64,000 nucleotides of DNA. It comes from Nemertoderma westbladi (Eukaryota > Animalia > Xenacoelomorpha). Made by a program: the position numbers and the translations under genes. Of the stretch, positions 1 through 29,185 are shown piece by piece. How positions within the stretch are numbered: position 1 is the first letter of the stretch; the number at the start of each line of letters is the position of its first letter. The stretch lies in contig JAUCBJ010002054.1 in the NCBI GenBank assembly GCA_032718475.1, positions 1 to 64,000 on the forward strand, written 5' to 3'. The notes below the pieces were generated by a model. That model was given only the letters and a program-made list of their open reading frames with translations, was not told the DNA's origin and did no database searches.

Positions 1-26
1 TAGGATTAGACGGAACATGCTGCAGC

Positions 27-1192
27 TGTAAAAGCTTTTGCGTAATTAGCCGGTTATTTTCCCCGTAAAGTACTCTGTAGTTGGTTTACTGGGCATAAAA
101 AGGCCGTGTCCTTACTGTACTGGTGTTTTAGAGGACATAAAAGCCATTTCTTCTGTATTTGTACTTTAGAGGACATAATCCGCAATTTCGGGACGCAATA
201 AGCTCGATACTCTTGAAAACAGTGTCGCTACCATGACGACGGCTAACAGCTGATATTGCCACGTCGACATTTCTTTGTTTCTTTGTTCTCTCGTTGTTCG
301 GTCGACCAATCAGAGCGTTTTCTGTCTCTGTGTTGGAGGTGGATACAGAAACTCAGGAATTCAGTGTTATGTTTTTGCCCAGAGCCTAAGAACACCGGCT
401 TTTGGCACCTCCGTGTTTCAGTCTTTAGTCTTACATTAGTAGGCTTAATTATAGAACGTATATCTGTTATCGAGTTAACGAGTTACCTTATCAATGCTTA
501 CTAAACATATCATGCATATCTTACTTAACATTACTGCTTTTGCTGTCGGTTATTCATTATATTTGTTGATGGAAGATTATATTTGGAATACTGATCAATA
601 GTCAGACACCCAACCTTCTTGATATACTAAAGGTTAGAGAGACCGGTTACAGATAAACGATTGCGACCTATGTTAAGTGGTTTGAAGTGAATCTAATGCT
701 ATTTTATAGGCCCTACATGTATTGTCTGTTATTCTCTTTGTATGTGACTAAAATTAGTGAAGGTCGGCAGATTGGTGTGCAGCATTGTGCAGCATTGTGT
801 ATGATTGTGACTGATAACAAAGCATCTCCTAAAGAATGCGCCATATACGTGAATCTATAGCCATCTCATTGCGTCTGGTTTAAGTCATAACTCTGTTTAC
901 ATATTTAGAGCGCCACGTCCTAAAGGAACTGTTAATATTTCCCGAAAGTGAATAATATTTGTCAGAGATTATATATTACGATCAGTCGAATAATACAGTA
1001 GGCTTACACCATCAATCATTAAGCTTCCGAATTCAGTCTCCCGGGTATATCCAGCGGGTGAATGATTGCGCATAGACTGGCTTCGGCTAATGTAGTGTAT
1101 CAAATACTCGTCATAGGCTAAAGACTATCTATCATCTAAAAGACATCCTAATTTGGCAGGTTAAACTGTCAAAGGTCTTAAAAGCGCAAACA
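27..1192 (+). repeat. 5' LTR of E1
   Basis: Starts TGTAAAAGC, ends GCGCAAACA; I count about 6 substitutions versus the 3' copy by eye. Confidence 0.96.
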
Positions 1193-1203
1193 ATAACAGA
1201 TAT
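1193..1203 (+). other. Candidate self-priming primer-binding site of E1 (ATAACAGATAT)
   Basis: Directly follows the 5' LTR, has no TGG, and is the exact reverse complement of LTR 460-470 (ATATCTGTTAT). Confidence 0.7.
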
Positions 1204-1470
1204 TGCTTCTGGATTGCGGCGTAAGCAATCAAGTCGAAAGTACCGGTCGACCGGAAACCTGTAGGCCTGACTGCCTGATCACCCGAACCGGTACTTACAG
1301 TACAGGTACAGCAGTATTATTCGATTTTGATAATTATATACCGGTAGGCCTTAATAATTAATCAGGGACTGCAGCCCTGGTTTTTTATTGAGATTTTACT
1401 TATTTCTGTCAGTTTTATTTATTTGTAGGCCAGTATTGAGCAGAAGGCGTGTAAGCTTGCTCAGTCTATA

Positions 1471-2045
1471 CAGACAATTGTAGGCTGGACTGTTGTTGTC
1501 TGGCTGTTGTTGGGTCTGAACGGATTGCAGTGTGTGTAGAGTCTGTCCGATAAAGTACGGTTAGGAAGTAGGGGCAGCCAGAGCTGTAAGGTCAATCCCC
1601 ACCTAAAGAATAAGTCGTACTACCGTGTTAGAACGCATACTAACTAACCATTTTGGAATCTGCACATACTGTAGTTTATTTAGGCTTGATAGTAGTCTGC
1701 CAGCGTTTGGTCTGTACTTTGTTTGTGTAGTCTGTACGGGTAGCGTATAATTTTATTTAGATAATTTGTAGGCTGGATAGTTGTCTGACTGTTGTTGGGT
1801 TTGAGGAAATTTCGGTGTGTGTAGAGCATCTGTCCGATCAAGTGCTAGTTGGGAACGTAGGGGCTTCAAGTGCTGTGAGGTAAACCCCCTGTGAAAGAAT
1901 AAGTCGTACTACTGGGTTAGAACGCATACTAACTAATCATTTCGGAGTCTGCATATACCGTAGTTTGTTTAGGCTTGATAGTAGCCTGTCAGTATTTGGT
2001 CTGCATTTTGTTTGAGTAGTTTGTACGCGTAGCGTAATATTTATT
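1471..2045 (+). repeat. Two ~288-bp tandem units in the E1 leader
   Basis: Units start near 1471 and 1759 (..ATTGTAGGCTGG.. to ..GTAGCGTA..); the same duplication is in E2 at ~29455-30030. Confidence 0.85.
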
Positions 2046-3385
2046 ATTCAGAGTTTATGCTATTATTCGCAACATTCATTCCCCAAGTTTATTCCTACAG
2101 TAATTGTGTATGTTATACATACCGTTATAGTTAAACTAACCCCGGTACTACATCAGGGCTGCTCGGCGTAGGTAAAGACTGGAGATTTTGTGCTTTGGTC
2201 ACTCCGGCAGATACCGTGGTTCTTTTAGCTGTTCAAGTATTTTTAACTACTAATTATTTGTTGTACAAGTACTTGTACCTAATTTAGGGTTTAGTGTACA
2301 GTACTTTCCGAAGGTGATTAGTGTGTGGGCAGTATATTTGTGTTGTAAAGTGGTTAATAGGCACGTTGGTTCTGGTAGACCGCGGTAATTAATCTCTAGG
2401 TAGGAACACTCCGTGATACATAACGTAGTACCTATAGCGATACGGTTATAGGTCGTCAGGCGGTGGTATTTTCCTATCTGGACAACGCAGTATATTTACT
2501 ACTACTTATTATTTTCAAATACCGTAGTAACCTGTCCGTTGTAATAACCAGATATTCTAACCCTTTGTTAGGCTGGTTAGTAGACTTCTTGTAAAATTAC
2601 CCTAAAAATTCGTATTTGTGTATTTGTAATTAAATTTTTGTGTTTATTTAGAGATTGTAATCTCAACCCGAATTGTACGTAATTTGTAGTATTAAGTAAC
2701 TTAGGTAAATTAGAATTATTTGTTTTAGTGTCTAACAAGTAGCACTCCACTGAGAGCGCACAGCTTATGTGTAGTGACTCCCCCAGAAATAATAACATTT
2801 ATTTCAAACATTGACAAAACCCATTAAACGGGTATATATATATTATAAATCAACTCAAACGATTTATAAATAGTAGGCCTGCCATACAACAACTAGGTCT
2901 CAATATCAGTTGGACTACTGCTTAAATAACGGTAATAAAGTAAGTTAAAGTAACCAAGTAACCCTTAAAATTCAGAAATTCAATTATTCTAAAATAATTG
3001 ACATACCGGTATTTACAATAGGCTTATTATATTTATTTCTATAAATTTTAGGCTGAAATCATACCGGTATTCTGTAATTAATTCTAGTCTGTAATTATAC
3101 TTATATATATACATTATAAGTGTAAGCTGCATACCGGTATTCACGATAGGCCTATTATATATATATAAATTTAGGCTGAAATCATACCGGTATTCTGTAA
3201 TTAATTCTAGTTACTAATAATACTTATATATACTATAAGCATACCGGTATTCTAATATTATATATATATCACGCTACACTGAGTAGCAGTATCGGTAATT
3301 AATTACTAGGCTAGCAGTTAATGCTGAATTACTAGACTTGCTTAGACTGTAATATAGCAGTAGGCATTCAACTGTACAATCAAAC

Positions 3386-6300
3386 ATGTCTGACACAAAA
3401 CAAACATTGTCAGATAGCCTCTTAGAAAGTGCTAGAATGAGTGTTAGACAGGGTCTTAAAAAGATCTGGGACTCAGCTAAGAGTATAGAGCGTCTGAGAC
3501 CAAAGTCCAAGTCCCCTCCTACTGTAAGCAAGGTCATCCCTACAGTAGTAATATCAGAACCTAGGCTGGTCCAACATCGTAGGTCTATCATAGGCACTCG
3601 AGCGCAGGTCAAGCGGGACCAAGAAGCATCGGAACAGCAACAACCCGCGAGCCAAGAATTTATTCCTCAGCGGCCCGACAGCTCCAGTAGTGAGGATACT
3701 GTAGAGCTGACACCCGAGCGCGGAGCAAAGATGACGGATGCGATTTATTCGGATCCCCTTCTCATCCTTCCTGCAGCCGTACTCACTAGGTTATTGATTG
3801 CGGTGGAAGAACACCAGATCGATTGGGCGAGAAATAAACGATCGACTAAAGATAGTTATGCGGGATACACAAGGGAAGAACTGAAGTCTATTGTCAAGTC
3901 GCAATGGAACTTCCCCGGACCCGGACTCCCGTTTGATTTATCAGAAGCTGCCTGGGAAGACATACACCGGATGGGAGTAACCAAGGAAACCATCGATCCA
4001 GCTGTGCGGAAGAGGTCCGCAGCCGGATACGCACAGGGATTCTTCAGCTCTATGGAGCGACTAAAAGAACAACTGTTTCAACAACCACAAGGACCTCAAG
4101 AGCAGGGACAACTGCTTTATCAAGTTAGAGAAAGAATTCTGCGAATCAGGCTAATCTTATCGGCCTTTGAAGAGGCTTCTAAAAGAAGACAAGACACGTC
4201 GTTGCAAGTTGCCGTAAAGACTTGGTTTCGGCGGGTGAGTCTCCAGGTTCAAGGAACAGCTCAGTGGAAAGCTCAGCTGGAGGAGCGCTCAACCCATGGA
4301 GAATCAACAGACGCTACTTTTTCCCAAGTGGAAAGTGAAGCGACGGCAGAGAAACCGCATAAGAGGGATGCCATTGACATCTATCTGTCAGACTATCAGC
4401 GTTTTTTAGGAGATGAAGAGTTGAGGAGAAGGTTAGATGGACTTAGCCCTAATAGTGAAGGAGCCCAGCGTGTGTTGGACGCAATTGATGTGGATAGGAT
4501 AGCTGCGAACCAAGCTAAATTTGATGAAAGTATCCGCATCGCTAAGGTTCAAGAAGAACAAGTAAAGAAAAAACGTATAGAAGATAGAAAGACAGCAGCA
4601 GCGGCAGTGGCAGCGGCAGAAGCGGAAAGAAAGGCAGCCGAAGCGGAAAGAAAAATAGCAGTGGCAGAAGCAGAACGGAGGGCATCTGAAGAGACAACCC
4701 AACTAGAGTTGGAAAATCTTCAAGAGAGACAAGACAACTTTAATAAACAGTTAACAGCTAGTAATATGCAGATGATGAATCGATCTACTCCCAAAAGACA
4801 AGGTTATACATCATCTGAGGAAGGCGATACCACCGACACTGAAGGCGGAGGAAATCGATCTCGCCTAAGCAGACGTAAAAGAATGTCCCACCATCAGAAA
4901 TTGCCTGATTTGCCCCCAGCTGTTAGAAGGCAACTAAATAACACCAACTTAGGTAGTACAGAACCCACAGACCAAATAATTACAATAGAAAGACTCCCTA
5001 CTATAGTAGATGAGCCTGAAATAATTAGGCCTGTTCCCGAAGCCACCCTTTCGGTGGTAGAGACACCTGTACTCCCTGAACCTACCTCTAAATTCCCTTT
5101 GCACAGTACCAAGCTACCTGTGCCCAGCAGAACAGCCCATGAGACAGTTCATGCCCTGGACTCCGAGCGAAATATTCATGATTTGTCGCCCGTTGTCCCT
5201 CGTCCGCCCGCTACAACGTTGGCGAATCCCGCTTCGGCGGTCGAATGGGTGGATGAGAGACGACGGGGGATGGATCTCCTGCTCGGACAGATGCAGGAGA
5301 CCGTTCAGCAATTCAAGGGCACAGTAAGGGAAAGTAGGTTAGAGTTGCAAGAAGTGCAGCAAAGTATCGCGCTAGAACGCGATAAATTAGTAAATACACA
5401 AAGGGGTATACCACCACCCCCTGTAACAATGTGTCAACCTGTTAGGTCTGAAGTATCTCATGCGCAAGGTGTGGAGCCTACACGCATATATACTGCTAGC
5501 GAAGTAGAAACTCCTATAGTCAACCCTATTAAGGGTAATTATAGACCTGTTGATAATGATATTCCCTATAGACCGGATCATAATCCGAGAAATTTCTATA
5601 CCGATAACTCGATATTAAATAACACGATGGCCCAAGAAAGTTTTACGCGTCAAATGGCTAGAACCGAAGCCCGGCAAGCGGTAAAGGTTGGAGAGATAGT
5701 CAAGTTCAATGGAGATGAGATGAAATGGTTACCTTTTAATGAATATTACAAAGATAACATACAGAACTCTGTGCTATCCAACGGAGAGAAACTTAGATTC
5801 CTCATCGAGTGCTTGGAAGGATCTCCCAAGTTAATGGCGTCAAAGTTTATTGGACATCCAGATGGATTAAGACAAGTTTGGGATACACTAAACATCAGGT
5901 ATGGTAATAGGACTAACATAGCTAGGTATTTATATGCGAAATTAATGGCGCCCCGAAAGTTTCTTAGCAGCGGGATTATAGAGTTTTCCGACGAGATTCA
6001 GGAGATCTGTAGACAACTAGATTGGTTAGGTAAGTCTCATGAATACCAGAATTCTATGGTTGTAGGAGCCTTAGCATCTACTTTGCCCAAGGGTGGAGTA
6101 GGTACACGCTGGGACAAGAAAGTGTTATATATGATGGAACAACAACGACGAGACCCTACCATGGCTGATCTCATGTCATTCTTAGATAGAGAAGTGAAAT
6201 TACAGCTCCTAAGGCAGTCCAGAGAGAAGACACTGGAAAACAAGGTAAGTGAGAAACCCGTTTCTAGGAGAAGGGTAACACCAGTGTGTTATACAGACGA

Positions 6301-7969
6301 CGGCGAAAGCCAGACTTCTCAAGGAGAGGATAGCGGGAAAGACACTGAAAGATCTTATTATGTCAATAAAACGCCTAAAGACCAGGTAAGTAAATTCAAG
6401 TCTCGAACCAATGACAGGAGAGAACAGGTAAGAAAAACTCCTCCTACGTCTCCCAAGAGAATTCAGGTGAGAAAGCCCGAGGAAAGAACGAACGTGCACC
6501 ACACAGCACATGTTAAAGTAAGTAACATCAAGCCCAAATGTGTGCTGTGCGATGGGCCCCACCGTTTAAGTGCGTGTGATGAATTCCTGAGGAAATCACT
6601 AAAGGACAGACGTGAAGTCATGTGGGATAAGCGGTTGTGTTATAATTGCCTCAGACGAGGACACCAACGGCGAACCTGTTACTCCGACGCAAGGTGTGCA
6701 AAGTGCGGCGCAAAACATCATATCTTGTTGCACACGGAATTCGAACGAAACAGCCCGAGTCAGGTAAGTGAGTCCGAACTACATGTCCAATTCAGTGATG
6801 TGAACGACACTGACCAATATTCTGAGATGGAAGGATTCTATACGGACGAATTCTCCGACGAAAACGAATCCTGTTACCTGACAAATACCGCAGTGTATCG
6901 AGCACTTACGTATGAAAAGGACACCGACAGCGAGCTCCCCCTAACTACTTCTGACAGACAACCATCTTGGAAAGCGCCAACTTCCAATGTAGGAATCCGA
7001 GAATTTCCTGTAGTACAGGTAAGGGTCCACGGACCTAAAAGGAGTTATGTAGTGAACGCCCTCCTTGACTCCGGTAGTACAGGAACATTCATCGACAAAG
7101 AACTAGCCGAAGACATCTTTGCTGGACAACCCAAGTTCCGAACTAAGCTAAACATGTCAGGAATTATGCAGGTTTGGAAATCTACAGTAACAGCGGATTA
7201 TTATGTAGGTGCGTTGTCCACCCCCCAGGACGAACTAGGAGAACATAGCATAAGGTCAGTAAAAATGGTGGCAATAAAGAACTTCGCTACCACCCAAGTG
7301 GAACCTTATAACTGGGATGAGGACGATTTCACCCAGCAGTTTGAAATACCTAGATTCAACACCGATTACCCTGGAGTCCAAATACTCATCGGTCAAAATG
7401 CGCATGAAGCGCTCGAGACATTGGAGAAACGGCCTGCTCAACCGCAACCTCTACAAGTTTATGCGGGAAGAACTAGAGTAGGTTGGTACTTTACTGGCCC
7501 TTCTCGTAGAACCCTTATGGAAAGATTACCAAAAGAACAGGTATATCAATTAAGTGAACGGGAAGTGGAGAGCAGTGAAGTTGACGACCCAACTGAGGGA
7601 ACACCATACTCCTCAGATAATGACGACATCAACTCCAATGAAGATCAATGGAGACATTGCCCCGAGACGATCAATCTAGCCGACATCGCTTCCAGAGGAG
7701 CAACTCCTCAAGAACTTACAGATACTCCAAACCGGTTAGGTGGACCCGACTTCCTAAGTAAAGAAGATGAATGGCCTCCTCATCTTACCACGGTGAAGAT
7801 TAGACTGGCCAAGGGAGCGGAGAAAGTAACACAACCACTCAATCGCCCAGCTGGTCGTTTATGTTTACCGGAAAGAGACCGAAAACTGTCCGGAAACTAT
7901 GGAAGGCAAGATACTCTTCCCACGACCACCTCCCTAATCCAACAAATATCTAGGGACTCCATAACGTGA
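3386..7969 (+). CDS. BEL/Pao Gag-protease polyprotein with RT/RNase H/integrase deleted in frame (1527 aa)
   Basis: Pao Gag core (FNGDEMKWLPF..LSNGEKLRFLIECLEG), three Cys/His knuckles (CVLCDGPH, CYNCLRRGH, CAKCGAKHH), aspartic protease LLDSGS. Then only WRHCP..NLADIASRG (end of Pao RNase H region) and LNRPAGRLCL (integrase C-terminal tail). No YxDD motif and no DDE core. Confidence 0.92.
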   Translation: MSDTKQTLSDSLLESARMSVRQGLKKIWDSAKSIERLRPKSKSPPTVSKVIPTVVISEPRLVQHRRSIIGTRAQVKRDQEASEQQQPASQEFIPQRPDSSSSEDTVELTPERGAKMTDAIYSDPLLILPAAVLTRLLIAVEEHQIDWARNKRSTKDSYAGYTREELKSIVKSQWNFPGPGLPFDLSEAAWEDIHRMGVTKETIDPAVRKRSAAGYAQGFFSSMERLKEQLFQQPQGPQEQGQLLYQVRERILRIRLILSAFEEASKRRQDTSLQVAVKTWFRRVSLQVQGTAQWKAQLEERSTHGESTDATFSQVESEATAEKPHKRDAIDIYLSDYQRFLGDEELRRRLDGLSPNSEGAQRVLDAIDVDRIAANQAKFDESIRIAKVQEEQVKKKRIEDRKTAAAAVAAAEAERKAAEAERKIAVAEAERRASEETTQLELENLQERQDNFNKQLTASNMQMMNRSTPKRQGYTSSEEGDTTDTEGGGNRSRLSRRKRMSHHQKLPDLPPAVRRQLNNTNLGSTEPTDQIITIERLPTIVDEPEIIRPVPEATLSVVETPVLPEPTSKFPLHSTKLPVPSRTAHETVHALDSERNIHDLSPVVPRPPATTLANPASAVEWVDERRRGMDLLLGQMQETVQQFKGTVRESRLELQEVQQSIALERDKLVNTQRGIPPPPVTMCQPVRSEVSHAQGVEPTRIYTASEVETPIVNPIKGNYRPVDNDIPYRPDHNPRNFYTDNSILNNTMAQESFTRQMARTEARQAVKVGEIVKFNGDEMKWLPFNEYYKDNIQNSVLSNGEKLRFLIECLEGSPKLMASKFIGHPDGLRQVWDTLNIRYGNRTNIARYLYAKLMAPRKFLSSGIIEFSDEIQEICRQLDWLGKSHEYQNSMVVGALASTLPKGGVGTRWDKKVLYMMEQQRRDPTMADLMSFLDREVKLQLLRQSREKTLENKVSEKPVSRRRVTPVCYTDDGESQTSQGEDSGKDTERSYYVNKTPKDQVSKFKSRTNDRREQVRKTPPTSPKRIQVRKPEERTNVHHTAHVKVSNIKPKCVLCDGPHRLSACDEFLRKSLKDRREVMWDKRLCYNCLRRGHQRRTCYSDARCAKCGAKHHILLHTEFERNSPSQVSESELHVQFSDVNDTDQYSEMEGFYTDEFSDENESCYLTNTAVYRALTYEKDTDSELPLTTSDRQPSWKAPTSNVGIREFPVVQVRVHGPKRSYVVNALLDSGSTGTFIDKELAEDIFAGQPKFRTKLNMSGIMQVWKSTVTADYYVGALSTPQDELGEHSIRSVKMVAIKNFATTQVEPYNWDEDDFTQQFEIPRFNTDYPGVQILIGQNAHEALETLEKRPAQPQPLQVYAGRTRVGWYFTGPSRRTLMERLPKEQVYQLSEREVESSEVDDPTEGTPYSSDNDDINSNEDQWRHCPETINLADIASRGATPQELTDTPNRLGGPDFLSKEDEWPPHLTTVKIRLAKGAEKVTQPLNRPAGRLCLPERDRKLSGNYGRQDTLPTTTSLIQQISRDSIT

Positions 7970-9791
7970 CAACATACGGAGTGGGTGTGTGACTATATTA
8001 TTTTATATTTATTTTTATTATTTTATATTATGTATGTATTATTATGTAATTTTATTATAATCGTTTTCTTTAATTTTATTTAGTAGAATGTTATTTAGTG
8101 ATTATTTAGTAGATTAGTGCAATATATTAGTGTTTATTACTTAATTACTTATATATTATATTTAGTGCGACGGCGAGAAATAATTCTTTTTCTCCTTCCT
8201 TACTGTCCGTATTACATTACAAATACGTAACTACAGTAAGATGAAATGTCCGTACTTATTAAAGTACAATAAAGCCACTACTATATTCAAGTATTATTGG
8301 TAGGCAGAGTATTAGGAATGCAAAGTTCAGATCCTCGTGTCTCGGCTAAACCAAGCTCTGGGTAGACCTTGGAAACGACTTGCCTCTTCACACTGACATT
8401 GCTTCGTGCGATATTGCTCTCATACCGTATATTAAATAATACATATAGTAGCGTGATGTCCCTTTAACAGTAGCGTAAAACGCAAAATAAATCTGTTAAA
8501 CCCTTTGACCATCTGCAATTCTAGTCGATTAAGATATCGCGGCACCCACCGATATACTTGAAAGACAAAATTCTAGAATCAGTGGTTAACGTCCCCAGAC
8601 AAGTTCTGGAATAAATTGGTGCCCATCTCAAATATTAATTATTTAATATTTACAAATCTATAAATCAAAATCTGTAAAATTCAGATCCTTTAACAATTCT
8701 AGTCGATTAAGATATCGTAGCACTTACCGATACTCTTAAAAGACAATTTTCATAGAATTAAGGATCCTATGTCCCCAGACCTGCTCTGGAATCAAATTGT
8801 GTCAATTTAACTATCAAATAATAAAATTTCAGGGAATAAATTTAAATTCATACTTTAATGAATTTAATAAATTGCAATTTTATGCAATTTATAACATTCC
8901 CAAAATTCCATTAATTAATAGATCATGGGAGCGGAGATTCACTATATTCAGTGTATTTGTGTGTGAGAATCTCCAATGTATAGTCAATAGCCGATAAAAT
9001 TCATAAAATCACATATAGAGAGGATATTGACAATTAAAGAATTACTATTAAATAGCATCCCAGATCTGTATGCATGAGAATTACCCTAATTCTACCGCTA
9101 GCTTTCCATAATGTCACCATGGCAACAACCACGCTAGAATTAGAAGTGAGTTAAAAGAACAATAAAGGGCTTGCGTATTGAATAGCATACGGAATAAATA
9201 GCACACCGCTAGTATCCAAGGATACATAATAACAACGTGACATTCTGGAAGGCACTTGACTAACGGACAAATGACCCGAATGTGTGATAGAATGTGCACC
9301 ATTTGTGACAGTTACGTGGAATTTGTGCGTTTGTAGGTGAATGTTACTACTAAGGTGTGTTTACAGTAGCGAGTCGCAATTGTGAAAGTAACCCTAACTC
9401 TCCAGTAAGAACCTGAAGTATATCTAAGCCTTTGGGACGGACGGTGGAGTGGCTCGTGCTGGTTGTTGTAGTCGTTGTGCAGCTACGACGTTGGCGATAG
9501 GCACATCGGCGAAAGTACACCAGCGCTGAGGATCTCGCACTGTCCGGGGGCAGAGAGGGGTAGGCAGCGACGCCCGCTCGCCTAAATATAAACTCATTAT
9601 AATATGGATAAACTTATATAGCAGATATGATTGAGTTGATAGAAGATGATCTTGGTATCAGGGAGCGATATACTCTACCTTTACAAGCGTTTGTTGATAG
9701 CTTGATACGCGGCGACGCTGGTCCAACTACTACGGAGGACGATGGTCGTTATATCTAACCGCCAATCTCCCGGGAGCAACTTGCGCGTGGG

Positions 9792-11148
9792 TTGGACTGT
9801 AGAAAATTTACCGCTCGCTGTACGCATCGTAATGGTATGTATATGGACTTCTTAACTACTGGTCATCCTATCGACCTACACGATACGAACGATATAGACA
9901 CCAAAAGGGAAATGGTTTTATTTAAATATCCTACCCAGCGGAAGCGGAACGATAAACTGAAACTCGAACACGAAAATTCTATTCGAAACCGACTCGAAAG
10001 TGCAGATGTTGAAGAGCCGGATAAACGCAGCGACTTCACCAAATACGTGGAATTCTTGAGAGAAACCTATCTCGATATTACCAGTCAACAGAATCTAGAA
10101 ACTCGATATCCTCAAGGTATACCTCATGACCGCATGGTGGAACTCAAACGGCTCTATTCCACTATGATGTATCTTACCGCCGATCGATCGCTACCTGTTG
10201 TACCGGATGGCTTCGAACGGATGGAGGAATATTGTAAGCTGGAGAAAGATCACTCGCGTTTCCCCTACAAGACGTGCGTTTTTGGTATTATTGCGATGAA
10301 TGCCCAAGACCCAACCAACAAACGGAAAGACATAAACATCCGCGGAGACGTTGCTTTAAACACGGTTTTACTCGCTATACTTACGAGAGTTTCGAGCGAA
10401 ACTTGTTCGATGTATCACCTACGCTCGTTCGACTCAGACGATCCTTAAATAAACCAATGATCAGAGTTTCGGAATACTCGATCAGAACTCCTCATTCCCT
10501 AGTGAGACTTCAGACTCTTGATCCTATTAGTATGACGGATCCTCCCGAGCTGTACTCACTGCTCAAAGATCTAGTGTTACCTGAACAATTAGTCGGTGGC
10601 ACCCCAGTTGTGGGCTTCCTAGATATTAGCCCATTCTACCTAGCCGGATTGGGACGCGGACATTTAATATCGCCGTTTAACCCTTACCATCGTCCCGGCT
10701 TAACACGATATAACCTGTCACCAAAGTGGCGGAGAACGTTGTACCAAACGAGTTAAACGCTATTCTACAAAGATCAGAAAGGAAACCTGCGTTTGTTCAG
10801 ATAAACGTAAGTTGTAACAGCAAGTCCAAGCGATAAACGAATTGTCTTTATCTCAGTTCGATTGTGAAATCCAGAATCTCTAAGAAGATATCGAACTTAG
10901 ACAACCCCATTCTCTGCGAGAGTTTTGGATGGACGTATCCAGCTACGGGCGGAGGAAAATCAGCTCGAGGAGAAGCATATCGAAACGGCGGATACCCCGA
11001 CCATAATCCTACACCTTCTGATGCAATCATATTGCACCCTTCACCCAGGATTTATAGCCCTCCTAGTAAAGTGGCTCGCCCCAAAGAGAAAAGGACTCTT
11101 GCTAGCCTCAAAAAACTGCGTAAACGCCGTCTGCGTAAGAAAGACTAA
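9792..11148 (+). pseudogene. Decayed extra ORF between pol remnant and 3' LTR of E1 (possible inactive DEDDy-exonuclease homologue)
   Basis: Fragmented ORFs 9792-10448, 10274-10756 and 10864-11148. Segments GIIAMNAQ, NTVLLAIL..MYHL, PPELYSLLKD and GFLDISPFY occur in the same order as the exonuclease motifs of the E4 extra ORF. Confidence 0.5.
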
Positions 11149-11226
11149 CTGTTTAGAGTATCTTTATATTTTAGAAACTGTGATTTGTTATATTTTATAG
11201 ACTTAAATCCCATTTTCTGGGAGCGG

Positions 11227-12392
11227 TGTAAAAGCTTTTGCGTAATTAGCCGGTTATTTTCCCCGTAAAGTACTCTGTAGTTGGTTTACTGGGCATAAAA
11301 AGGCCGTGTCCTTACTGTACTGGTGTTTTAGAGGACATAAAAGCCATTTCTTCTGTATTTGTACTTTAGAGGACATAATCCGCAATTTCGGGACGCAATA
11401 AGCTCGATACTCTTGAAAACAGTGTCGCTACCATGACGACGGCTAACAGCTGATATTGCCACGTCGACATTTCTTTGTTTCTTTGTTCTCTCGTTGTTCG
11501 GTCGACCAATCAGAGCGTTTTTTGTCTCTGTGTTGGAGGTGGATACAGAAATTCAGGAATTCAGTGTTATGTTTTTGCCCAGAGCCTAAGAACACCGGCT
11601 TTTGGCACCTCCGTGTTTCAGTCTTTAGTCTTACATTAGTAGGCTTAATTATAGAACGTATATCTGTTATCGAGTTAACGAGTTACCTTATCAATGCTTA
11701 CTAAACATATCATGCATATCTTACTTAACATTACTGCTTTTGCTGTCGGTTATTCATTATATTTGTTGATGGAAGATTATATTTGGAATACTGATCAATA
11801 GTCAGACACCCAACCTTCTTGATATACTAAAGGTTAGAGAGACCGGTTACAGATAAACGATTGCGACCTATGTTAAGTGGTTTGAAGTGAATCTAATGCT
11901 ATTTTATAGGCCCTACATGTATTGTCTGTTATTCTCTTTGTATGTGACTAAAATTAGTGAAGGTCGGCAGATTGGTGTGCAGCATTGTGCAGCATTGTGT
12001 ATGATTGTGACTGATAACAAAGCATCTCCTAAAGAATGCGCCATATACGTGAATCTATAGCCATCTCATTGCGTCTGGTTTAAGTCATAACTCTGTTTAC
12101 ATATTTAGAGCGCCACGTCCTAAAGGAACTGTTAATATTTCCCGAAAGTGAATAATATTTGTCAGAGATTATATATTGCGATCAGTCGAATAATACAGTA
12201 GGCTTACACCATCAATCATTAAGCTTCCGAATTCAGTCTCCCGGGTATATCCAGCGGGTGAATGATTGCACATAGACTGGCTTCGGCTAATCTAGTGTAT
12301 CAAATACTCGTCATAGGCTAAAGACTATCTATCATCTAGAAGACATCCTAATTTGGCAGGTTAAACTGTCAAAGGTCTTAAAAGCGCAAACA
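11227..12392 (+). repeat. 3' LTR of E1
   Basis: Near-identical to 27-1192 (offset 11200), followed by TSD GCAGC. Confidence 0.96.
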
Positions 12393-12709
12393 GCAGCTTT
12401 AATTAAAACAAATGTAAACCTGATATATAATTATAATATTATGGAATTCTGCGAAATTTGTTATAGCTATGATGCTTGAGTAGATGTTATTTTGAGGTGA
12501 AGACAAGAAAATAATGCTACAGCCGCCGCCACTATACTGTGATCAGAATAATATTTGGCCTAAATAATGTATAATAAGTATTGCGGCACAAGAGAGTAAT
12601 TTTCATCTTTCAAGGGAAACTCAATTACATAATTACAAGCACAACCTTAAATCAATATTTGGGTTTAACAGACACCATCAAAATAATGTTGATGATTATT
12701 AAGATTTGC

Positions 12710-13776: not shown

Positions 13777-16700
13777 CTCACTCGTATTGCCTTCATAGGA
13801 CACCGCTATGTTGTCGTCGACAACCTCAGTAACAGACTCATCTACTGAACTCCATGTAGTGGCGGTGGCCGCCGTCTGGGGTCTATGTGAATCACCGGAA
13901 CGACCGCTAGATGGCAATGCAAAGGTAACGTCTCTTTCGGCTCGACCCAACGGACTAGCTGTCTTACATTGGATATCCTTAGTAAACCTGTAAAATATTG
14001 TAGTCTATTGTAATAGGCCCACTGTAATATTGTAACAAACCTCATTATTTTTTACCAATCAGTACATCCATCCATCCACTGTAATATTGTAACAAACCTC
14101 ATTATTTTTCAACCAATCAGTACATCCCTTCTTTGTACTACTGTAACAAACCTCATTATTCTTTGACCTATTAGTACATCCCTCCACTGTAATACTGTTA
14201 CAAACCCCTTTCTATTTTGACCAATCAGTACAATAGTACATCCCTTGTAAAACTGTAACAAACCTCCTTATCGTTTGAGCAATCAAACCATCTTTCCATT
14301 CCAAAGTATTTGGGTTAACTTCACCGTATAGCTCATTAAGTTGCACGCATTTGGGATTAATAACAACACAGTCAACGTGTCCCTTCTTTCTAGAATGCTG
14401 AAACGGAAAATAATATTTTGGATGGGACCAGCTTTTCTATTTTAGAAATTTCGATTGGAATTTTTCGTTTTACATGTTGGTTTTAATTTATATGTACGTA
14501 ATACATATATTAATTAATTAATGTTAGTCATTAGGGTGTAATAATATTACAACACACAAATACAATATCAGACATAATGTAACTTTTTTGCATTAAGAGC
14601 TTTCGCATAATTTTGTATAAAGTGTTGAACATGTTGGATCAGTTTTTTCGAGTTTGATACTCACTCAACATAATTGCACTATTCACAAATTCATGCAATT
14701 ATTGTTACACAAAAACTTTAATTGGCCATCATATTATTTTAATAACAAATTAAATCATTCGTTAAATTATCTTACCTTTTTTAATGTAGAATAATGAAAG
14801 CTGAAAGAAATAAAACTATTCATGTGGGTAGACTTACTAAATGGGCCAATGTTTCTGAGCTGTCGTCGGCAGTGACTGCCGGTAGGAATGTTAACGCCCG
14901 TTGTAGAATTGTTCGCACTGTGGACTTGCCACCACATGTAGGCCCAACCATCATGATACCGTGGCGAACCAATATCTGACTGTACAACTGCTTCACTTTA
15001 TCTTTCTGAGTTTTCCATTCTTCTAGACGTAGATCATGTATAGCTAGGTCGATCGCTTTCTATATTGAATACATTAGGAATAAAAACTTCCGTCTGAAAT
15101 AGGTTCTTAATTGCAATATAAGTATTATATTATTTACGCGGCTATATAATTAGTATTAGTAATTATATAACAAAGCGGCGAAAAAAAAAAAATAATCAAT
15201 AATAATGAAATAAAATAAAATAAAAAACTTAAAGTATAAATAAATCAATTGCGACCTTTGCTTAATTTCAGTATAACTGTCATTACTAATTATCCTTCAA
15301 TACCGGTAGCTACGCTATCACCCGTGTAGCACTGACGTCTAATTCTTATTTCTCCGACGGGTTTCGTAGTGTAGTGGTTATCACATCTGCCTAACACGCA
15401 GAAGGTCCTGGGTTCGAGACCCAGCGAAACCATTGGTTATAATTTTGTATCGAGACAATACATGTTTTGTTCACACGTTTTTGTTGTTAACAGGTCGTTT
15501 TAAAAAAAATATTATTTTATTATGTATATAAAAAAATTAATTACATTTAAATAAATGATATAAATCTTTAAAGACGTACATCTAATAAAGTTGTCTCCTC
15601 CAAAGGAATGTCGACTCCCGGAAACAAATCATCCATGATTCTGTCCATAAGAACCACATCGTCAGCTATCATCTTTGGTACATTGCTTTCTCTAAGGGCC
15701 TTGATCAATAAATGCACCTCGTCTACCCCTTTGTCGCCTCGCGATTTCGCTTTCAGTTGCCCGGCTAATACCAGAACGCTCTTTACCGATCTCATCCCAA
15801 AGTCGTAGTGATCCTAAGTAAAACATAAGCGTTTCCTCATTATTATTATTATTCAGGTATCGTTTGAGCATAATTCTCAGTAATTTTCGAGTCATTATTT
15901 TGATAATGACAACTTTTGCTGTTTCATTTAAAAGGTATATGACTTTAAATAATATATATTTATTTAATTTAAGTAGGGCCTAGGGTAAATAAATACATTT
16001 ATATCAACCTGACCAATACAACGCCGCAATATTACTGATAATATTTACATTCTAGAACTAATGAACAATTATTTACAGATGTTATTATTATTAATTTCTA
16101 CTCTATTTCCGATACTACACCTTTTACAATTACGATTTAGTATTATTGTTCTAATAGGCCTAATATTCAATATAATTGCGGAAACTAAGTACTTAATAAC
16201 TATAACAATGTTTATTGTCAATATTATTCAGAATTACTACTACTACTAGGTCGAGCGAACTCGGACAGTGGAAATGAGATCCTTTCAGGCTTCCCGATTC
16301 TGCATAGTTGTAGCAATTTCGTTTCTGCCAAGTTCAGTATCCCTTTCAAGTTGATCTATATATGTTATGGTCGGTCGTCCACGACTACGCTTTCCATGAG
16401 TTGGTTGCCAGAGAAGTAGATCTGGTATGACCTCGTCTTTACTTCGCCAGCAGTGTCCACTGAATCTTAATCTGCGTTCAAGGAGGTGGTTGATACAGGT
16501 GGTATTGTACCATAAAGCTCGGCGTTGGTCATGTGTTGTCTCCAGCTGATGTTTAGGGCTGCCCTTAGTAGTCTTGTGTAGCAACCATCAATTCGGTAAG
16601 CAATTTTGTTATTGTCTCACACCGTAATATCCTTGATTCATAATATTAATGAATATTCATTGCTTGCATGAACTTCAAACAGGAAATATGAAAAGCCTGC

Positions 16701-19700
16701 AGAATCAGTGGTTCTCTTAATCTCCATAATCCCATAGTTATCTCTCGAATCGTGAATAACAATTTTAAATTCAACTAAATTTTTAAACTCCGCGCAGAGA
16801 CAGGTTTATCAATCTAAAAATGTGCTCACCTTATTTACCATGTCCAAGGTGTATCTATTAATATTATAATATATATTTTATTAATAAAATCATTTATACC
16901 AACTCACTTGTTTGGATAGTTGATTGCTCGCCAGATGGTAGAGATTTACGTATAATATTTATTTTATTAATAAACTCATTTTTACCAACTCACCTGTTTG
17001 GACAGTTGATTGCTCGCCAGATGGTAGAGATTTACGTATAATATTTATTTTATTAATAAAATCATTTATACCAACTCACTTGTTTGGACAGTTGATTGCT
17101 CGCCAGATGGTAGAGATTTACGTATAATATTGATTTTATTAATAAAATCATTTATACCAACTCACTTGTTTGGACAGTTGATTGCTCGCCAGATGGTAGA
17201 GATTTACGTATAATATTGATTTTATTAATAAAATCATTTATACCAACTCACTTGTTTGGACAGTTGATTGCTCGCCAGATGGTAGAGATTTACGTATAAT
17301 ATTTATTTTATTAATAAACTCATTTATACCAACTCACTTGTTTGGACAGTTGATTGCTCGCTAGATGGTAGAGATTTACGTATAATATTTATTTTATTAA
17401 TAAACTCATTTATACCAACTCACTTGTTTGGACAGTTGATTGCTCGCCAGATGGTAGAGATTTACGTATAATATTTATTTTATTAATAAAATCATTTATA
17501 CCAACTCACTTGTTTGGACAGTTGATTGCTCGCCAGATGGTAGAGATTTACGTATAATATTGATTTTATTAATAAAATCATTTATACCAACTCACTTGTT
17601 TGGACAGTTGATTGCTCGCCAGATGGTAGAGATTTACGTATAATATTGATTTTATTAATAAAATCATTTATACCAACTCACTTGTTTGGACAGTTGATTG
17701 CTCGCCAGATGGTAGAGATTTACGTATAATATTTATTTTATTAATAAACTCATTTATACCAACTCACTTGTTTGGACAGTTGATTGCTCGCCAGATGGTA
17801 GAGATTTACGTATAATATTTATTTTATTAATAAACTCATTTATACCAACTCACTTGTTTGGACAGTTGATTGCTCGCCAGATGGTAGAGATTTACGTATA
17901 ATATTTATTTTATTAATAAACTCATTTATACCAACTCACTTGTTTGGACAGTTGATTGCTCGCCAGATGGTAGAGATTTACGTATAATATATATTTTATT
18001 AATAAACTAATTTATACCAACTCACTTGTTTGGACAGTTGATTGCTCGCCAGATGGTAGAGATTTACGATCTTTCTGGAAAGTACTTTAGCCGCTTCGAA
18101 CCCCACGGAGAACAGCATAATCTCTGCGATAAGGTTGTAGTCAGGCATTGTCATAGCAACCGGCCGAAATAATGACTTTAAGTTGTCTGGAAGTTCAACT
18201 CGACCAGCGTATCTGTAAACATGGTAAATGTTTTGTGAAATAACAAAAAAATAGAGCTTAAAAATACGATTGCCTGTTAGCATTGTAATGGAGAAGAGTT
18301 CCGGAATGTAATCAAGTTGTAATAGATTGAGATTTGGAGTATGAAATTTCACTTGAAAATTGACATTAAAGTAAAAATTTAAAACGTCAAATTGATTATT
18401 AAATGTTAAACAGAAATGTTCATTACTCGTCTGATTGTTTGCAACGAGTAGATTGGTTTCGAACTCGGGAACTGAAAGTAAATATTGAACCATCTGTACC
18501 CCCTTGTACAGTGTACCGGTATTGGGCTCAAACTGCCCATGCTCCATTCCTACAGAAGCTACTGGATTATGGGTCAGAGTAAAACGCGGATCCGGATCCG
18601 TATTCTAAATTTAACATTGTCCCAACGGAAGTAGATTTTTTTTACATTTTTATAACTCCCAAAAATAAAACTATAACCTGTTCTAATGACTTAGTTTATT
18701 GCTTTGGTTAAAATAACGTGCCATTGTAACCTGCTCCTTTCCCTTAATTAATAATTTTGGGATCCGGATCCGGATCCGTGTTTTATTCCTGGATTATGAC
18801 CCACATCATAATGTTACCTGTAGCAACATAATCTACATTATGTTCTGCCAACGGATAGAATATATATTATGTCAATTTTCTAATAATAATATAAATTAAC
18901 ATTTTTAAGTTTCATTAAGCCAGACCAAATGTAATATTTGAAATAAAACAAAAACACTCACCCTGGATTCATTGTAACAAATACCCCACAGGAATGGTTG
19001 AGTTTAATGTCCTTGGACTCGAATATAAACCTCGAGCTGCCCAGCTCTTTGGCCGCCTTTATCGATTGAACCTGCTGGGCGATTACCGACAGAACTTCCT
19101 GATCTATCCGATTAAACTCATCGAAACAACACCAGTTCCCAGACTGAGCCAACCCACTCAGTAACTTACCCATCATCTGGGGAAAACATTTAAGGTATTG
19201 TTAAGATCAGAGACGATACGAGGTACAGTTCTAAATATAAATCTAAATAAAAGCATTAAAAAAACATGCAGTATTTAACTACTTAATTAATATATATTTA
19301 TTTAAGAAACTTAAACCTACCGACATTTCAATTTTACGAAATATCACAACCTTGTGTCTTTACTTACCTTGTAATCAACCCCTTCAGAGCAGTTATAAAC
19401 AACACAAAGTTTGCCCACCGCCTTGGCAAGGTCTTTTACTGTTTCAGTTTTCCCGGTACCAGCAGGTCCCGCCGGTGATCCTCCCAGATTATGGTATAAA
19501 GCGCCTACAATGAATTTAAACAGCAGCGAATATTATCTTTACATGACAATTATAAAAGATGTGCAAACTTACATGGGGTGTGACAATCAATTTGGGTGCT
19601 AAGGAATAGGCGCGTAAGTGCCCATTGCGTGAATAACTAACCCGTTAAGGTCAAATAACACCTGTCGGTTAGTGGTGTAACAACGAGTCTGGAAGAGCAC

Positions 19701-23473: not shown

Positions 23474-24067
23474 TGTTTGTACATTATGTATATTTGTTAC
23501 TAGTATTCAAGTCCATAAAATGTCTTTATCCTAAAACTGTTCATAGGTTAATGATTAAGTCGCACAGTCAGCACATCGCAGCTCCTCAACTCCCACTATA
23601 GTGCTGTACTGCACAACATGTACAGCATTTTGTTTACAGTACCTACATTACAACTACCTTACAAACAGGTTGTCAGTAGTAATGTACCACGATTGGTTGG
23701 GTCAGCAGTAACATTACTTACATTGTATAGTATACAGTAGGTTGTAGGAGGCAAATAATGAGTGAAAGATGATCTTTGAAGTTTCTGTATGGCTCAGTGC
23801 CGGAAACAAATAACATAGAGCTACAACTGAAGTGCATGAAATGGTAAGCCACGCCTCATAATTGCGATATATATTCCTATCCATATATCCAGAATATTTA
23901 TATCATTTTCATGCGTTAAAAATACGATATTACTTTAATATACAGTATTTTATTTGACAGAAATAAATATTGGATTTCTTACAAACACACATACTGAATT
24001 GGACATTCTACCATTGGAGGTTTTATGGTGCTGAATAATTATTAACTGCCGGTAAAATACTTTAAAA

Positions 24068-24625
24068 ATGGCTGAAATAGAGATGTCTAGGGGAGAATTT
24101 GCCATGTTGTGGTTCGCCATACTAAATATGTTGGTTTTAATGGTAACCTACCTATTCGTTATTGCACGACTTTCGGACCTTGACGAAAATTCAATGCACA
24201 ACTCGTCTGCAGTCCGTCGAATCAATAGGTTAGCCGATTACCAGGTGATATCGCATGCTCTGGTGCTGATTGGTCTAGCGGTCTATAAGCGCTATTGGCT
24301 TCTACTGGTTAACAGCCCCGTCTTCGTTTGGGAACTATACGAACTGTGGTCTGTTCCAAAGCGTAATCATGGACCTTACTCCACATTCAACCTTACAGAA
24401 GATCGCATTCTAACCTACATGCGAAACAACGCAATAAAGTTGGTATTTTCTATTGTAATTCTCGTTGTCTACATATGCTGTCTCATTTTGGATACTGGCC
24501 ACGGAAATGCGCTGAATCACGCTGCCTTTATCCACGACTACTACGGCGGAATCAGTCATCATAGGTTCCAAGAAAACCCAGGGGATACTGAACATTTGAA
24601 GATTCTTCAACCATCTGTTAAATAA
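24068..24625 (+). CDS. Intronless cornichon family protein (CNIH4-like, divergent)
   Basis: 185-aa ORF with hydrophobic segments and cornichon-like motifs LSDL, LLVN.P...W..Y....VP..N.G and M...IKL.F, plus a hydrophilic C-terminal extension. Confidence 0.78.
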   Translation: MAEIEMSRGEFAMLWFAILNMLVLMVTYLFVIARLSDLDENSMHNSSAVRRINRLADYQVISHALVLIGLAVYKRYWLLLVNSPVFVWELYELWSVPKRNHGPYSTFNLTEDRILTYMRNNAIKLVFSIVILVVYICCLILDTGHGNALNHAAFIHDYYGGISHHRFQENPGDTEHLKILQPSVK

Positions 24626-24999: not shown

Positions 25000-27938
25000 T
25001 GTTCCCATATACTTGGCTGCAGGGGTATATGGCCTGGCCAGGCAGATGGTGATCTACCAATGGCTGGTCCGGAGTGCAGTGTTCTCATGTCCACTCTGAG
25101 TGCACTTCACTGCGACCTGCACCTGGCAGCAGGGGTACAGGGCATGACCCAGCAGATGAGCTGCACAGCCAATGGTGGGTCATGTGCGCCAGAGTAGATA
25201 TGGGTGATGGGCCTCAATCTGACTCCACTGCGACACCCACCTTGTGGAATGGCAAACCCAGGGTGTGGTATTTGCCCCGAGAGCTGACTCGGCAAAAAAG
25301 CACCCCCCAACCCCCACTATGTAATACATTAGTAATGCGGAGGTCCAGCCACTAGAGGCCAGTGGAATGACTGGATGGACACAATCGGCCTCACGGGCGT
25401 CAGTTATCTCCTAACAGGCTGCCTGTCTCACCACCTACTGGAGAGAGAGCGGCAAACGATTCTTTGAGTCCCTTTCCTGATGACCTTTCTGGCCCAAACC
25501 CTGGGTCACCAGGGAGGCCAGATTGTGAGGGGCAGAGGGATTCTGGAGTTGGAGGCTACTCTCATGTTCCACCCTGACCAACAAAGCCATTGGTGAATCT
25601 GAGGCAAGTCACTAGACTAGCCTCAGTACACACCCTAACACTCGGGTCCCCAATGCGACAAGGTGAGCTGACTGCCTTGGCAGATAAGCTTTCTCTTAGT
25701 GCAGTGGGTGTTCAAGAGCACCGAATGCAGACTGGACAGACTGATGAGGTTCTGATTAAGGACATGGGGGCGGTTGGCGACTCGCCCTCGCTTCAGCAGA
25801 TGATAGTGGCAATGGTGAAATTTGTCTATTGATGAATCCAACTGCACATGCAGCATTGGACAAAATAGACCAAATCTCTAACCGCATCATCCGTTGCCAC
25901 TTCTCATGTTCTGGAAGACTAGCTAAGAAGTTTCCTAAGGTGGTTCTGATTGTGTGCTACTCTACAACTAGTGTTGCCCCTGTAGAGAAGGTGGAAAATT
26001 TCTACCAGAATCTACAAGCAGCTACTGATGGAGTGGATCAGCATGCATTCTTAACATTCCTGGGAGAGTTTAATGCATTTCTGCATCAATCACCTACATC
26101 GCCCTGGGTCTATAGCAATAGTGTTAACCGAAATTCCGTCCATCTTCAGGATTTTATCTCTGGAAATGGATTGTTTTCGGCTGGAACCCAATTCAAGAAG
26201 CGAACTGGAAAGCTATGGACTCATAGTGGACCCAGTGGTCACAAGTCCCAGATAGACCATATCCTGTTTCGTAGGAAATACAGGAGCTCTATACAAGACT
26301 GTAATGCATTTACACTACGACCCTTCTCCAGTGATCACCGCCTTATTGTGGCCAAGGTAAGACTTAGTCTGCGTGCTAGAAGAACGACGAAATCTGCCTT
26401 GCCGCGGCATGACTGGTCCTCTCTGTTGCAACAGCCAAGTGTGAGATCCAGCTTCACACTACAGCTGAGCAACAGGTATGAGGTTCTTGCCTCTGAGGCG
26501 GCAGATCACTGTGAGGGCTATACTGCCTTCAGCCAGGCAGTAAGTTAGCAGCTGCAGAAACAGTTCCTGTATACCCCCGAAACAGGAAACGGGCCCCCTG
26601 GACTGACAACAAAATTCAGAAGTGCCGAAATAACTTCTACAAGGCGCAGAAAGAGTCCCGACTCAAACAGACTACAGCGGCCAAGAATGCAGTTAAGGCT
26701 GCATCTAGGTCCCTGAACAGGCAGTACTCTGTTAATTTAAAGGAGCTAATAAACCAACAGGTTGATGCCATCAATGATGCTGACGACAGCAGGCAATCAC
26801 CCTATGCATGGAGATCGATCAACTTGCTTGATGGTCGAAAAAGCCAACCAACCACCAAGGTTAAGGCTGAATCACAAGCCGATCGCCTCAATGGTTGGAA
26901 GGCCCACTTTGAAAAGCTCCTCAATAATGACAGGGTATTGCCTGATAACTTTATAGAAGTAAAAGTGTCTGAGTCTGTACTCCCAGATATTCCCATTGGT
27001 GATATCTCCTTTGCAGAAGTGAAGGCTGCTGCAAAGAGCATTAAGACCAATCATGCCAGTGGAGTAGATGGTGTTCCCCCTGAGGTCTTTAAAATACCTG
27101 AGTGTTTAAAGCTTATCTATCCCATCATAGTAGACATGTACCGAACAACAAGAGTCCCACAAGAAATGAAAACAAATAAGTTGGTGCCAGTTCCCAAGAA
27201 GGGCAATCTAACACTCTATGGTTCTTTTCGGGGAATCTCATTGATCTCGATTGCTGCAAAGCTATACAATATAATTCTATTAAATCGCATCAGGGATCCC
27301 ATTGAGAGACTGCTCCGTTGAAATCAGAATGGGTTCTGTAAAGGTCGTGGGACCATGGAGGCTCACGTATGTTCAGCATACTTTCATTATATGGGATTCC
27401 TGATGAAATTATTGCAGCAATCCGATCAGTATACGATGGTTCGATAACATTTGTGTCTACTGTTGACAGTGACACAGAACCATTTGAAGTGTTATGGGGC
27501 GTCCTCCAGGGAGACACACTTGCACCATTCTTGTTCATAATTATTGTTGACTATGTTCTACGCATGTCCTTAGATCATCATAATGATGATGGGGTGATGA
27601 TAACTCCACCCACTGGCTCCAGAAGTCGAGGAAATTCTACCAAGTACCTAACTGATCTAGACTTTGCTGATGACTTAGGAGTACTCTCAGAATCACTAGA
27701 GGGAGCCCAACGGCTCCTCAGCTCATTAGAACATGCTGCTTCTAGTGTTGGTCTTTTTATTAACTCCAGAAAGACCAAACTTTTGACAGTTAACTTTGAA
27801 AGTCCTCAGCAAGTCTCTGATCGGATGAGCATAAGCTCAAAAGATGGTATGCTTGAGCATGTGGATGACTACTGTTACCTGGGATCATGGATCCGGAAGT
27901 CAGGTGAGGATCTTCGTATACGTAAGGGAAAGGCATGG
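25000..27938 (+). mobile_element. Decayed RTE-type LINE (APE endonuclease + RT), 5' part
   Basis: VGVQEHR, QIDHIL, SDH (APE); RGISL, GVLQGDTLAP, LDFADD (RT); contains stops, frameshifts and an internal deletion. Interrupted by E2 at GKAW. The 5' boundary is approximate. Confidence 0.9.
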
Positions 27939-29174
27939 TGTAAAAGCCTTTGCTGAATTGCCCCGTTATTTTTATTATCTTTTACATTAAAATACTCTGT
28001 AGTTGATTTAATAAGTGTAAGAGACCGTATTATTGCTGTATCGGTGTTTTTAGAGGATCTAAGACCTATTTCCTCCGTATGTGTACTGTGAAAGGCATAT
28101 TTTATGATTCTATGGCAATTCGTGACGCAAAGGGGTGATAGCTACTCTTGAACAGTAGTTACTATGACTACGGTTAACAGCTGACATTCATACGTGTTGA
28201 TTTCCTTTGTTCTACGGCGTCTCTCAGTTCAGTCAGCCAATTAGAGCGTTTTTGTGGCTCCTTGTACAGAAAATTTCCGAGAAATGACGCAATGCCTATG
28301 TGCAGTGTTTACATTCAGTCCTGAGCCAAAGAAAGAACGGCTTGGAAGTATTTTGTGCTTTACTGTTTTAGCCGTACACTAGTAGGCTTAATCATAAGGA
28401 CATATATCCGTTATCTAACTTGACTAACCTAACTCAATGCAATCAATGCATACTGCAGTACTGCATACACTGCATACTGTGTAACACTGTGCATACTTTA
28501 TATTGTTATACTGCTATTTGCTGTCTGTACTTCATAATTTGGTTGATGAATTATTATATTTGGAATAACGATAAATAACCCCGAAAACCCAATATTCTTG
28601 ATATACTGAAGGTAAGAGAGAAAGGTTATACATAACGATTGTGACTTATGTTAAAGTGGTTTGAAGTGAATCTAATGTTATTTGATAGACCCTACATGAG
28701 TCAGTCCGTGTTCCTTTTATATGTAACTAAAATCAGTGAAGATCGGCAGATCAGTGTGCAGTATTGTGCAGCATTGTGTGCGGGTGATACTGATAACGAA
28801 GCATTTCCTAAAGAATGCGCCATATATGTGAATTATAACTAAGCCATATCGTTGTGATTAGTTTAAGTCATAACTCTGTTTATATAGATAGAGCGCCACG
28901 TCCTAAAGGAACTGTTAATATTCCCCGAAAGTGAATAATATTGTCAGAGATTATATAATACTGTCAGTCGAATAATACATTAAGCTTACATAGCACTAAA
29001 ATTAAGCCGTCGAACCCAATCTCCCGGGAATTATCCAGCGGGTGAATGATCGCGCACAGATTGGTTTCGACTAGTGTAGTGAATCAAATATTTGTCATCG
29101 GCTAAAGTGATTTATTATCTAACAGACATCCTAATTTGGCGGGTTAAACTGCCAAAGGTCTGAAAGCGCGAACA
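27939..29174 (+). repeat. 5' LTR of E2
   Basis: TGTAAAAGCC...GCGCGAACA, repeated at offset 11416. Confidence 0.96.
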
Positions 29175-29185
29175 ATAACGGATAT
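29175..29185 (+). other. Candidate self-priming primer-binding site of E2 (ATAACGGATAT)
   Basis: Exact reverse complement of LTR 28404-28414 (ATATCCGTTAT). Confidence 0.7.

Follow-up and report, generated by a model that had tools for sequence, protein, structure and literature searches.

A candidate self-priming site at the LTR edge of BEL/Pao retrotransposons in Nemertoderma westbladi and their relatives

Two young sister retrotransposons, E1 (27-12392) and E2 (27939-40590), lie in a 64,000-nucleotide stretch of Nemertoderma westbladi DNA (assembly GCA_032718475.1, contig JAUCBJ010002054.1, positions 1 to 64,000; hereafter the window), and in both the first 11 nt after the 5' LTR are an exact complement of an 11-mer inside the same LTR. 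The feature is real, and it appears to represent a known priming mechanism in a superfamily officially described as tRNA-primed. Element RNA of one kind or another very probably serves as primer, and the form that this would probably take is Tf1-like self-priming from the 5' copy of the element's own RNA, with RT and RNase H supplied in trans. Three observations carry the proposal, namely a complement of 11 nt directly beside the LTR end, the retention of such a complement in altered sequence by many related families, and the loss of RT and integrase; the transcription start site, splicing, cleavage, priming and the helper are what we infer.

Two young BEL/Pao elements and the 11-nt complement

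E1 and E2 are non-autonomous BEL/Pao elements encoding gag-protease only. Both have a BEL-type Gag (Pfam DUF1759, E 1e-12 in E1 and 3e-11 in E2), a protease, TG..CA LTRs, a polypurine tract and a target-site duplication; the triple Cys-His box and the protease motif are visible in the translated frames, and Pao Peptidase_A17 is carried by five of five database hits used as a test of BEL/Pao membership. The single PR-RT-RH-IN pol is absent from E1 and E2 and present in a third element of the window, E3, the former two being deletion derivatives. E1 cannot be placed on an RT tree, and its gag-PR scores are low and uninformative; a search of low power found no longer autonomous partner protein and no helper for E1/E2, and positions 1-3400 of the window contain no Rfam match. 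The features of the two elements are as follows.

22-26 and 12393-12397: E1 target-site duplication, GCAGC (5 bp)
27-1192, plus strand: E1 5' LTR, TG..CA, 1166 bp, with 6 differences from the 3' LTR (99.5% identity)
460-470, plus strand: E1 candidate self-primer, 11 nt, predicted duplex with the PBS of -10.5 kcal/mol
1153-1172, plus strand: predicted U5 hairpin, in the folds of E1 and E2, with one-sided changes only
1193-1203, plus strand: E1 non-tRNA primer-binding site (PBS), offset 0 from the LTR end
1209-1233, plus strand: hairpin predicted immediately downstream of the PBS, in E1 and E2 alike
3353-7969, plus strand: E1 open frame with Gag (DUF1759, three Cys-His boxes), protease and a short stretch similar to the RNase H end, without RT or integrase
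11216-11226, plus strand: E1 polypurine tract
11227-12392, plus strand: E1 3' LTR, with the second copy of the 11-mer at 11660-11670
27939-29174, plus strand: E2 5' LTR, 1236 bp, with a 5-bp target-site duplication, CATGG
28404-28414, plus strand: E2 candidate self-primer, predicted duplex with the PBS of -12.0 kcal/mol
29175-29185, plus strand: E2 non-tRNA PBS
31311-36389, plus strand: E2 gag-protease open frame, without RT or integrase
39355-40590, plus strand: E2 3' LTR, 99.8% identical to the E2 5' LTR

Further features of these elements include a 229-aa frame without Pfam match between the RNase H remnant and the polypurine tract of E1 (9759-10448), whose E2 counterpart is open in part only; a duplicated unit of ~289 bp in the leader of both elements (window 1472-2052); and a donor-like site at the equivalent place in both LTRs (633 and 28612), 3' of the primer site.

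In both elements the longest reverse-complement match between the sequence following the LTR and the LTR itself lies at offset 0 and measures exactly 11 nt, and base 470 of E1 pairs with base 1193, the LTR-adjacent base, as the sequence-only reading had claimed in describing a perfect complement with primer geometry; its claim that a TGG-type tRNA PBS is missing also held, no TGG being present in the first 17 nt after either 5' LTR. An 18-nt PBS for the 3' end of a host tRNA, as described for BEL/Pao, is thus not found in E1/E2, and what is found is a PBS of ~11 nt complementary to the element's own LTR, as in the Tf1/sushi group. When internal element positions were taken as mock PBS, an 11-nt match occurred at 4 of 9,940 in E1 and 2 of 9,940 in E2, rates that are not independent because the elements are related. 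The best match of the PBS to the one tRNA compared, the only one in the window, is 5 nt.

A single difference separates the 11-mers of E1 and E2, and it does occur on both sides (465 T/C with 1198 A/G), so that pairing is kept. Taken alone, this compensatory pair is weak evidence, with a rough expectation of ~1 in 20 given one change per 11-mer, and under self-priming one mutation would suffice for a two-sided change, since the PBS would be copied from the primer. The further claim that the LTR around the 11-mer is clearly diverged stands for the 3' flank (471-520, 30 of 83 columns identical between E1 and E2) but fails for the 5' flank, which is conserved (433-459, 23 of 28 identical).

The host carries this family in great abundance: 10,816 and 2,693 contigs from two independent host DNA runs of two studies (X1 and X3, respectively) align to window 1-1470, although their depth is not a copy number. 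Many copies share a block at 433-471 (plus strand) and diverge after 471-472 with discordant loose ends, and summed contig depth falls more than tenfold, from 82,495 at 470-472 to 6,780 at 473-475 in X1 and from 48,760 to 3,648 over the same boundary in X3. The depth drop after 472 indicates that sharing among the copies stops where the 11-mer has its 3' edge, which is not the same as invariance of the 11-mer. Neither is the lack of any listed substitution in 428-500, where variants near contig ends were left out and E2-like contigs were possibly missed; positions 465 and 1198 are likewise absent from the variants listed (40 of 288).

E3 belongs to a family different from that of E1/E2, and a helper role for it is not supported by the data. 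It spans window 43777-57139, with a 3' LTR that is cut by another element, E4, and an LTR end that is hence unconfirmed.

45261-45272, plus strand: E3 candidate PBS, following CA and starting GT, complementary at 11 of 12 positions both to 44567-44578 and to its counterpart in the 3' LTR at 57099
46015-54471, plus strand: E3 intact BEL polyprotein, 2818 aa, with RT-RH-IN present

The candidate PBS and its LTR site are ~680 nt apart, comparable to the spacing in E1; there is one other CA-adjacent candidate at 45762, and no convincing splice-joint site was found in E3. E4, nested in the E3 3' LTR, is a broken BEL element on the minus strand (57140-64000), with a 360-aa minus-strand frame (57665-58747) that has Cys-His knuckle-like motifs and no Pfam match. 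Elsewhere in the window, E2 is inserted into a broken non-LTR element (25760-27956) with motifs of a putative LINE-like endonuclease and RT; a tRNA-Val(AAC) gene is located at 15360-15432; tandem arrays of 86-bp and 147-bp units occupy 16779-18196 and 41679-43900, E3 starting at the edge of the latter; and frames at 17999-18604 (minus strand) and 24056-24625 (plus strand) presumably resemble a dynein heavy-chain exon and a cornichon-family gene, respectively.

Self-complements and predicted splice joints in BEL relatives

The RT-RNase H region of E3, aligned with 31 relatives from databases, served to retrieve 80 BEL loci from metagenome contigs, 12 of which have a repeat with distinct flanks; 11 were kept, L049, in which the repeat is a duplication of coding sequence, being dropped, and the LTR ends of L040 and L046, which are not clean CA, were placed by inspection. 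All 11 loci with both LTR ends have an LTR complement of 10-13 nt at offset 0-4 after the LTR when any GT..AG pair is permitted, against 146 of 10,868 (1.3%) in the pooled control under the same permission; the donor list was picked after inspection of the data, so this any-GT..AG control is the fair test. The complement is contiguous in two loci (L045 and L046), as in E1/E2, and in the other nine forms only via removal of a GT..AG segment, the best joints combining strong donors (mostly GTAAG) with acceptors rich in pyrimidines. In eight of the nine joint-type loci the acceptor is followed by an AATAAA-type signal at a distance of 13-104 nt, which would place the intron in R.

LTR ends were predicted blind at nine further loci, of which five were positive without adjustment, three of these agreeing with sister copies of known end, and four only after relaxation of offset, intron length or acceptor. 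The PBS of 17 family representatives, 10-15 nt long and located at offset 0-5, comes in 16 different sequences, which argues against a host tRNA, and their uniform start (GT in 15 and AT in 2, a feature not imposed; E1/E2 start AT) points to a defined primer 3' end. Joint-only complements are found in the LTRs of 15 loci (L002, L011, L014, L022, L035, L040, L063, L076, L077, L007, L039, L004, L010, L021 and L026), with predicted introns of 66-426 nt, 4-8 nt contributed by the upstream exon and a PBS starting GT or AT; in most relatives the primer sequence would accordingly exist only across a predicted splice joint. A tRNA PBS is lacking in 16 of the 17 relatives and ambiguous in L022 (56-75), where TGG at offset 1 accompanies a 10-nt splice-joint complement at offset 3, such that L022 could be an intermediate between tRNA priming and self-priming.

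This evidence from relatives is much stronger than the single compensatory pair. The tRNA-independent priming, with RT and RNase H in trans, that the sequence-only reading proposed gains support from it (11 of 11 loci versus 1.3% in the control) and from the loss of RT in E1/E2.

A survey of the 60 remaining loci, which was used for tree labels only and had no control, gave ~10 convincing matches and several ambiguous ones, most contigs lacking the region. In a quick RT-RH tree of 82 rows, five contiguous-type loci are placed among 25 joint-type loci, requiring at least two label changes, which fit repeated intron loss with the direction unproven. The distance from site to LTR end is ~90-270 nt in the 11 relatives versus ~722 nt in E1, and a TATA at -31 from the site is present in only one of the 17 relatives. 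Searches of metagenome contigs for the U5 pattern gave no match, and a search with the E3 RT for viral contigs found none.

A predicted rival helix and the proposed route of priming

In E1 and E2 the 11-mer has a second predicted partner, the arms of which are as follows.

813-819, plus strand: arm 1 of the predicted rival helix, pairing with 465-471, two-sided change at 465/819
843-859, plus strand: arm 2 of the predicted rival helix, pairing with 450-463, two-sided change at 458/848
28792-28836 (28792-28798 and 28822-28836), plus strand: predicted E2 rival helix arms

RNAs of ~800 nt, running from 460 to a point 60 nt beyond the first base of the PBS, were folded, and the predicted probability of pairing between site and PBS is 0.86 in E1 and 0.94 in E2 with a start at 460; it is 0.65-0.96 with 0-14 extra 5' bases and drops to 0.01 and 0.09 with 20, the competitor fold pairing 450-471 with 843-859 and 813-819. 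The rival helix is thus predicted to mask the 11-mer unless the 5' end of the RNA is no further than ~14 nt from 460. A total of 109 helices with a length of at least 7 bp can form in E1 as well as in E2, and just three of them are fully Watson-Crick with a two-sided change (primer-PBS, 456-463/843-850 and 465-471/813-819), all of which use 456-471; 12 column shuffles each gave none or one such helix. Comparison of the E1 and E2 folds adds a further two-sided change in the rival helix (454/855), and a fourth helix, 432-440 with 1086-1094, has one two-sided change and one G-U. The changes at 819 and 848 cannot arise from primer copying and may therefore point to selection on the rival helix, evidence that comprises two sequences only and long-range fold predictions that are fragile. 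A U5-IR-like stem-loop beside the PBS is reportedly required in Tf1.

In the proposed route, genomic RNA would start at 460 or slightly upstream of it, its 5' copy of 460-470 would fold back onto 1193-1203, and the RNase H of a helper element, acting in trans, would cut just after 470, as in Tf1. RT would then extend the 3' end through U5 and R and jump to the 3' R copy; the removed 5' bases would be restored from the 3' LTR, and the PBS would be recopied from the primer, so that the two sites stay matched. Supply of RT and RNase H in trans would be required because E1/E2 are without RT, most of RNase H and integrase. Since the 3' copy of the 11-mer, with its upstream bases attached, is predicted to be locked in the rival helix, only the 5' copy would be free; in most relatives a predicted LTR intron splits the primer sequence, and splicing would give the same exposure of one copy only, the intron surviving, we propose, because the unspliced R copy passes it on.

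A start near 460 fits the folding result, but several points count against it. A canonical TATA ~30 nt before 460 is absent, and the start site could not be pinned down by TATA position; the weaker 432-440/1086-1094 helix would suit an RNA that begins 5' of 432, for which folding predicts the loss of PBS pairing; and the implied R plus U5 of ~730 nt is unusually long, with no AATAAA downstream of the E1 site.

The primer could also be element RNA of another origin, either the 3' R copy, with the RNA circularised, cut or ending there, or a short LTR-only or co-packaged second RNA in trans. The 11-mer is present in both LTRs, and sequence alone cannot tell which copy pairs, while the AATAAA-type signals 13-104 nt past the acceptor in most relatives make short spliced LTR RNAs plausible; in E1/E2, however, the rival helix is predicted to mask the copy that has bases attached upstream, and the site is 722 nt away from the end of the LTR and lacks a poly(A) signal in its vicinity, and we regard such a primer as unlikely. 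Slightly less probable again is that the pairing is a structural switch of the leader (for PBS masking, packaging or translation control) and that a host RNA, such as a tRNA half, primes. The two mutually exclusive partners of the 11-mer, with their two-sided changes, would suit a switch, although the match sets in 0-5 nt from the end of the LTR, the place at which priming has to begin. Priming by half-tRNAs is known from copia lineages (excerpts of PMC6317226), and the E1 site reads like an Asn anticodon loop, with which the E2 G could wobble through a U; yet 16 different PBS in 17 relatives, each matching its own LTR over 10-15 nt, need no shared host RNA, and a PBS set by a tRNA would not track changes in the LTR. 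Chance complementarity, or a functionless relic of an inverted duplication, might be entertained for an AT-rich 11-mer seen in just two related elements of the window, with a single compensatory pair that is weak alone, but the mock-PBS controls, the convergence of all three clean covarying helices on 456-471 and the recurrence of the feature across the tree leave it with very little probability, and the controls and the 17 representatives have already largely refuted it.

Known priming systems and significance

Self-priming from the 5' copy of the element RNA, the reading preferred here, has its model in Tf1, which primes with its first 11 bases and RNase H cleavage (excerpts of PMC7175516), and the Ty3/gypsy self-primers include Tf1/Tf2 of S. 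pombe, Tj1 of S. japonicus, Tf1/sushi elements and Tcn1 chromoviruses (PMC7175516, PMC4600332 and PMC5341516, each in excerpt), self-priming of Tcn1 being predicted also in PMC6317226 (in excerpt). E1/E2 share with Tf1, Tf2, Tj1, sushi and Tcn1 the lack of a tRNA PBS, a stretch of ~11 nt, following the LTR, that is complementary to a sequence within it, and primer geometry; they differ in being BEL/Pao elements (Gag DUF1759, Pao RNase H region) rather than members of the Ty3/gypsy chromovirus clade, in that their primer comprises the first 11 nt only as a folding-based prediction (start within 14 nt of 460), in needing RT and RNase H in trans, and in a very long R-U5. Neither a rival masking helix, as in E1/E2, nor an intron-split primer, as in the relatives, appears in the excerpts of the Tf1 literature consulted. 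E1/E2 would thus work like Tf1 yet stand outside the Tf1/sushi group.

The sequence-only reading had placed the precedent in Ty3/gypsy, which is right for Tf1 and its relatives but too narrow, as self-priming is also predicted in the copia TAR lineage (Houba, Osr-1) from LTR complements of at least 10 nt (excerpts of PMC6317226). The complement in E1/E2 is of the same kind; the TAR lineage, by contrast, is plant Ty1/copia, and a splice-joint primer is not mentioned in those excerpts. In the half-tRNA-primed group (copia, Osser, Bianca) the PBS matches a tRNA 5' half, compared with the 5 nt matched by the window's one tRNA.

The ICTV profile of Belpaoviridae describes tRNA-primed replication, with a PBS of 18 nt for host tRNA-Arg or -Gly, and calls BEL/Pao replication poorly understood (PMC8742986). 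E1/E2 resemble that description in a Gag with three Cys-His boxes and DUF1759, protease, TG..CA LTRs, polypurine tract and 5-bp target-site duplication, and E3 does so in its full RT-RH-IN order; unlike it, E1/E2 and 16 of the 17 relatives (L022 being the ambiguous one) lack the tRNA PBS. Term look-up found no discussion of PBS or tRNA in the excerpts of a BEL survey (PMC3118150) and the Sinbad paper (PMC554778), BEL self-priming goes unmentioned in those of PMC3601003, PMC8220671, PMC2864245, PMC6934838, PMC12440569 and PMC8672886, and no report of it was found in a literature search, partly of excerpts, whose scope excluded subscription journals, Repbase Reports and supplements.

It is tentatively suggested, at somewhat less than even confidence, that across a broad marine-invertebrate branch of BEL/Pao tRNA priming has been replaced by a self-primer exposed in one R copy, mostly via splicing of an LTR intron, and that intron-free families such as E1/E2 gate it by the rival helix, with start-site choice switching replication on or off and the signal acting on RT-less RNAs. 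The prediction for the primer end is exact to the base. If self-priming holds, it would extend to each of the three LTR superfamilies and could be frequent in one BEL branch; LTR finders demanding a tRNA PBS would miss such elements, which may also escape control by 3' tRNA fragments, and the initial step of their reverse transcription would be gated by host splicing or by RNA folding.
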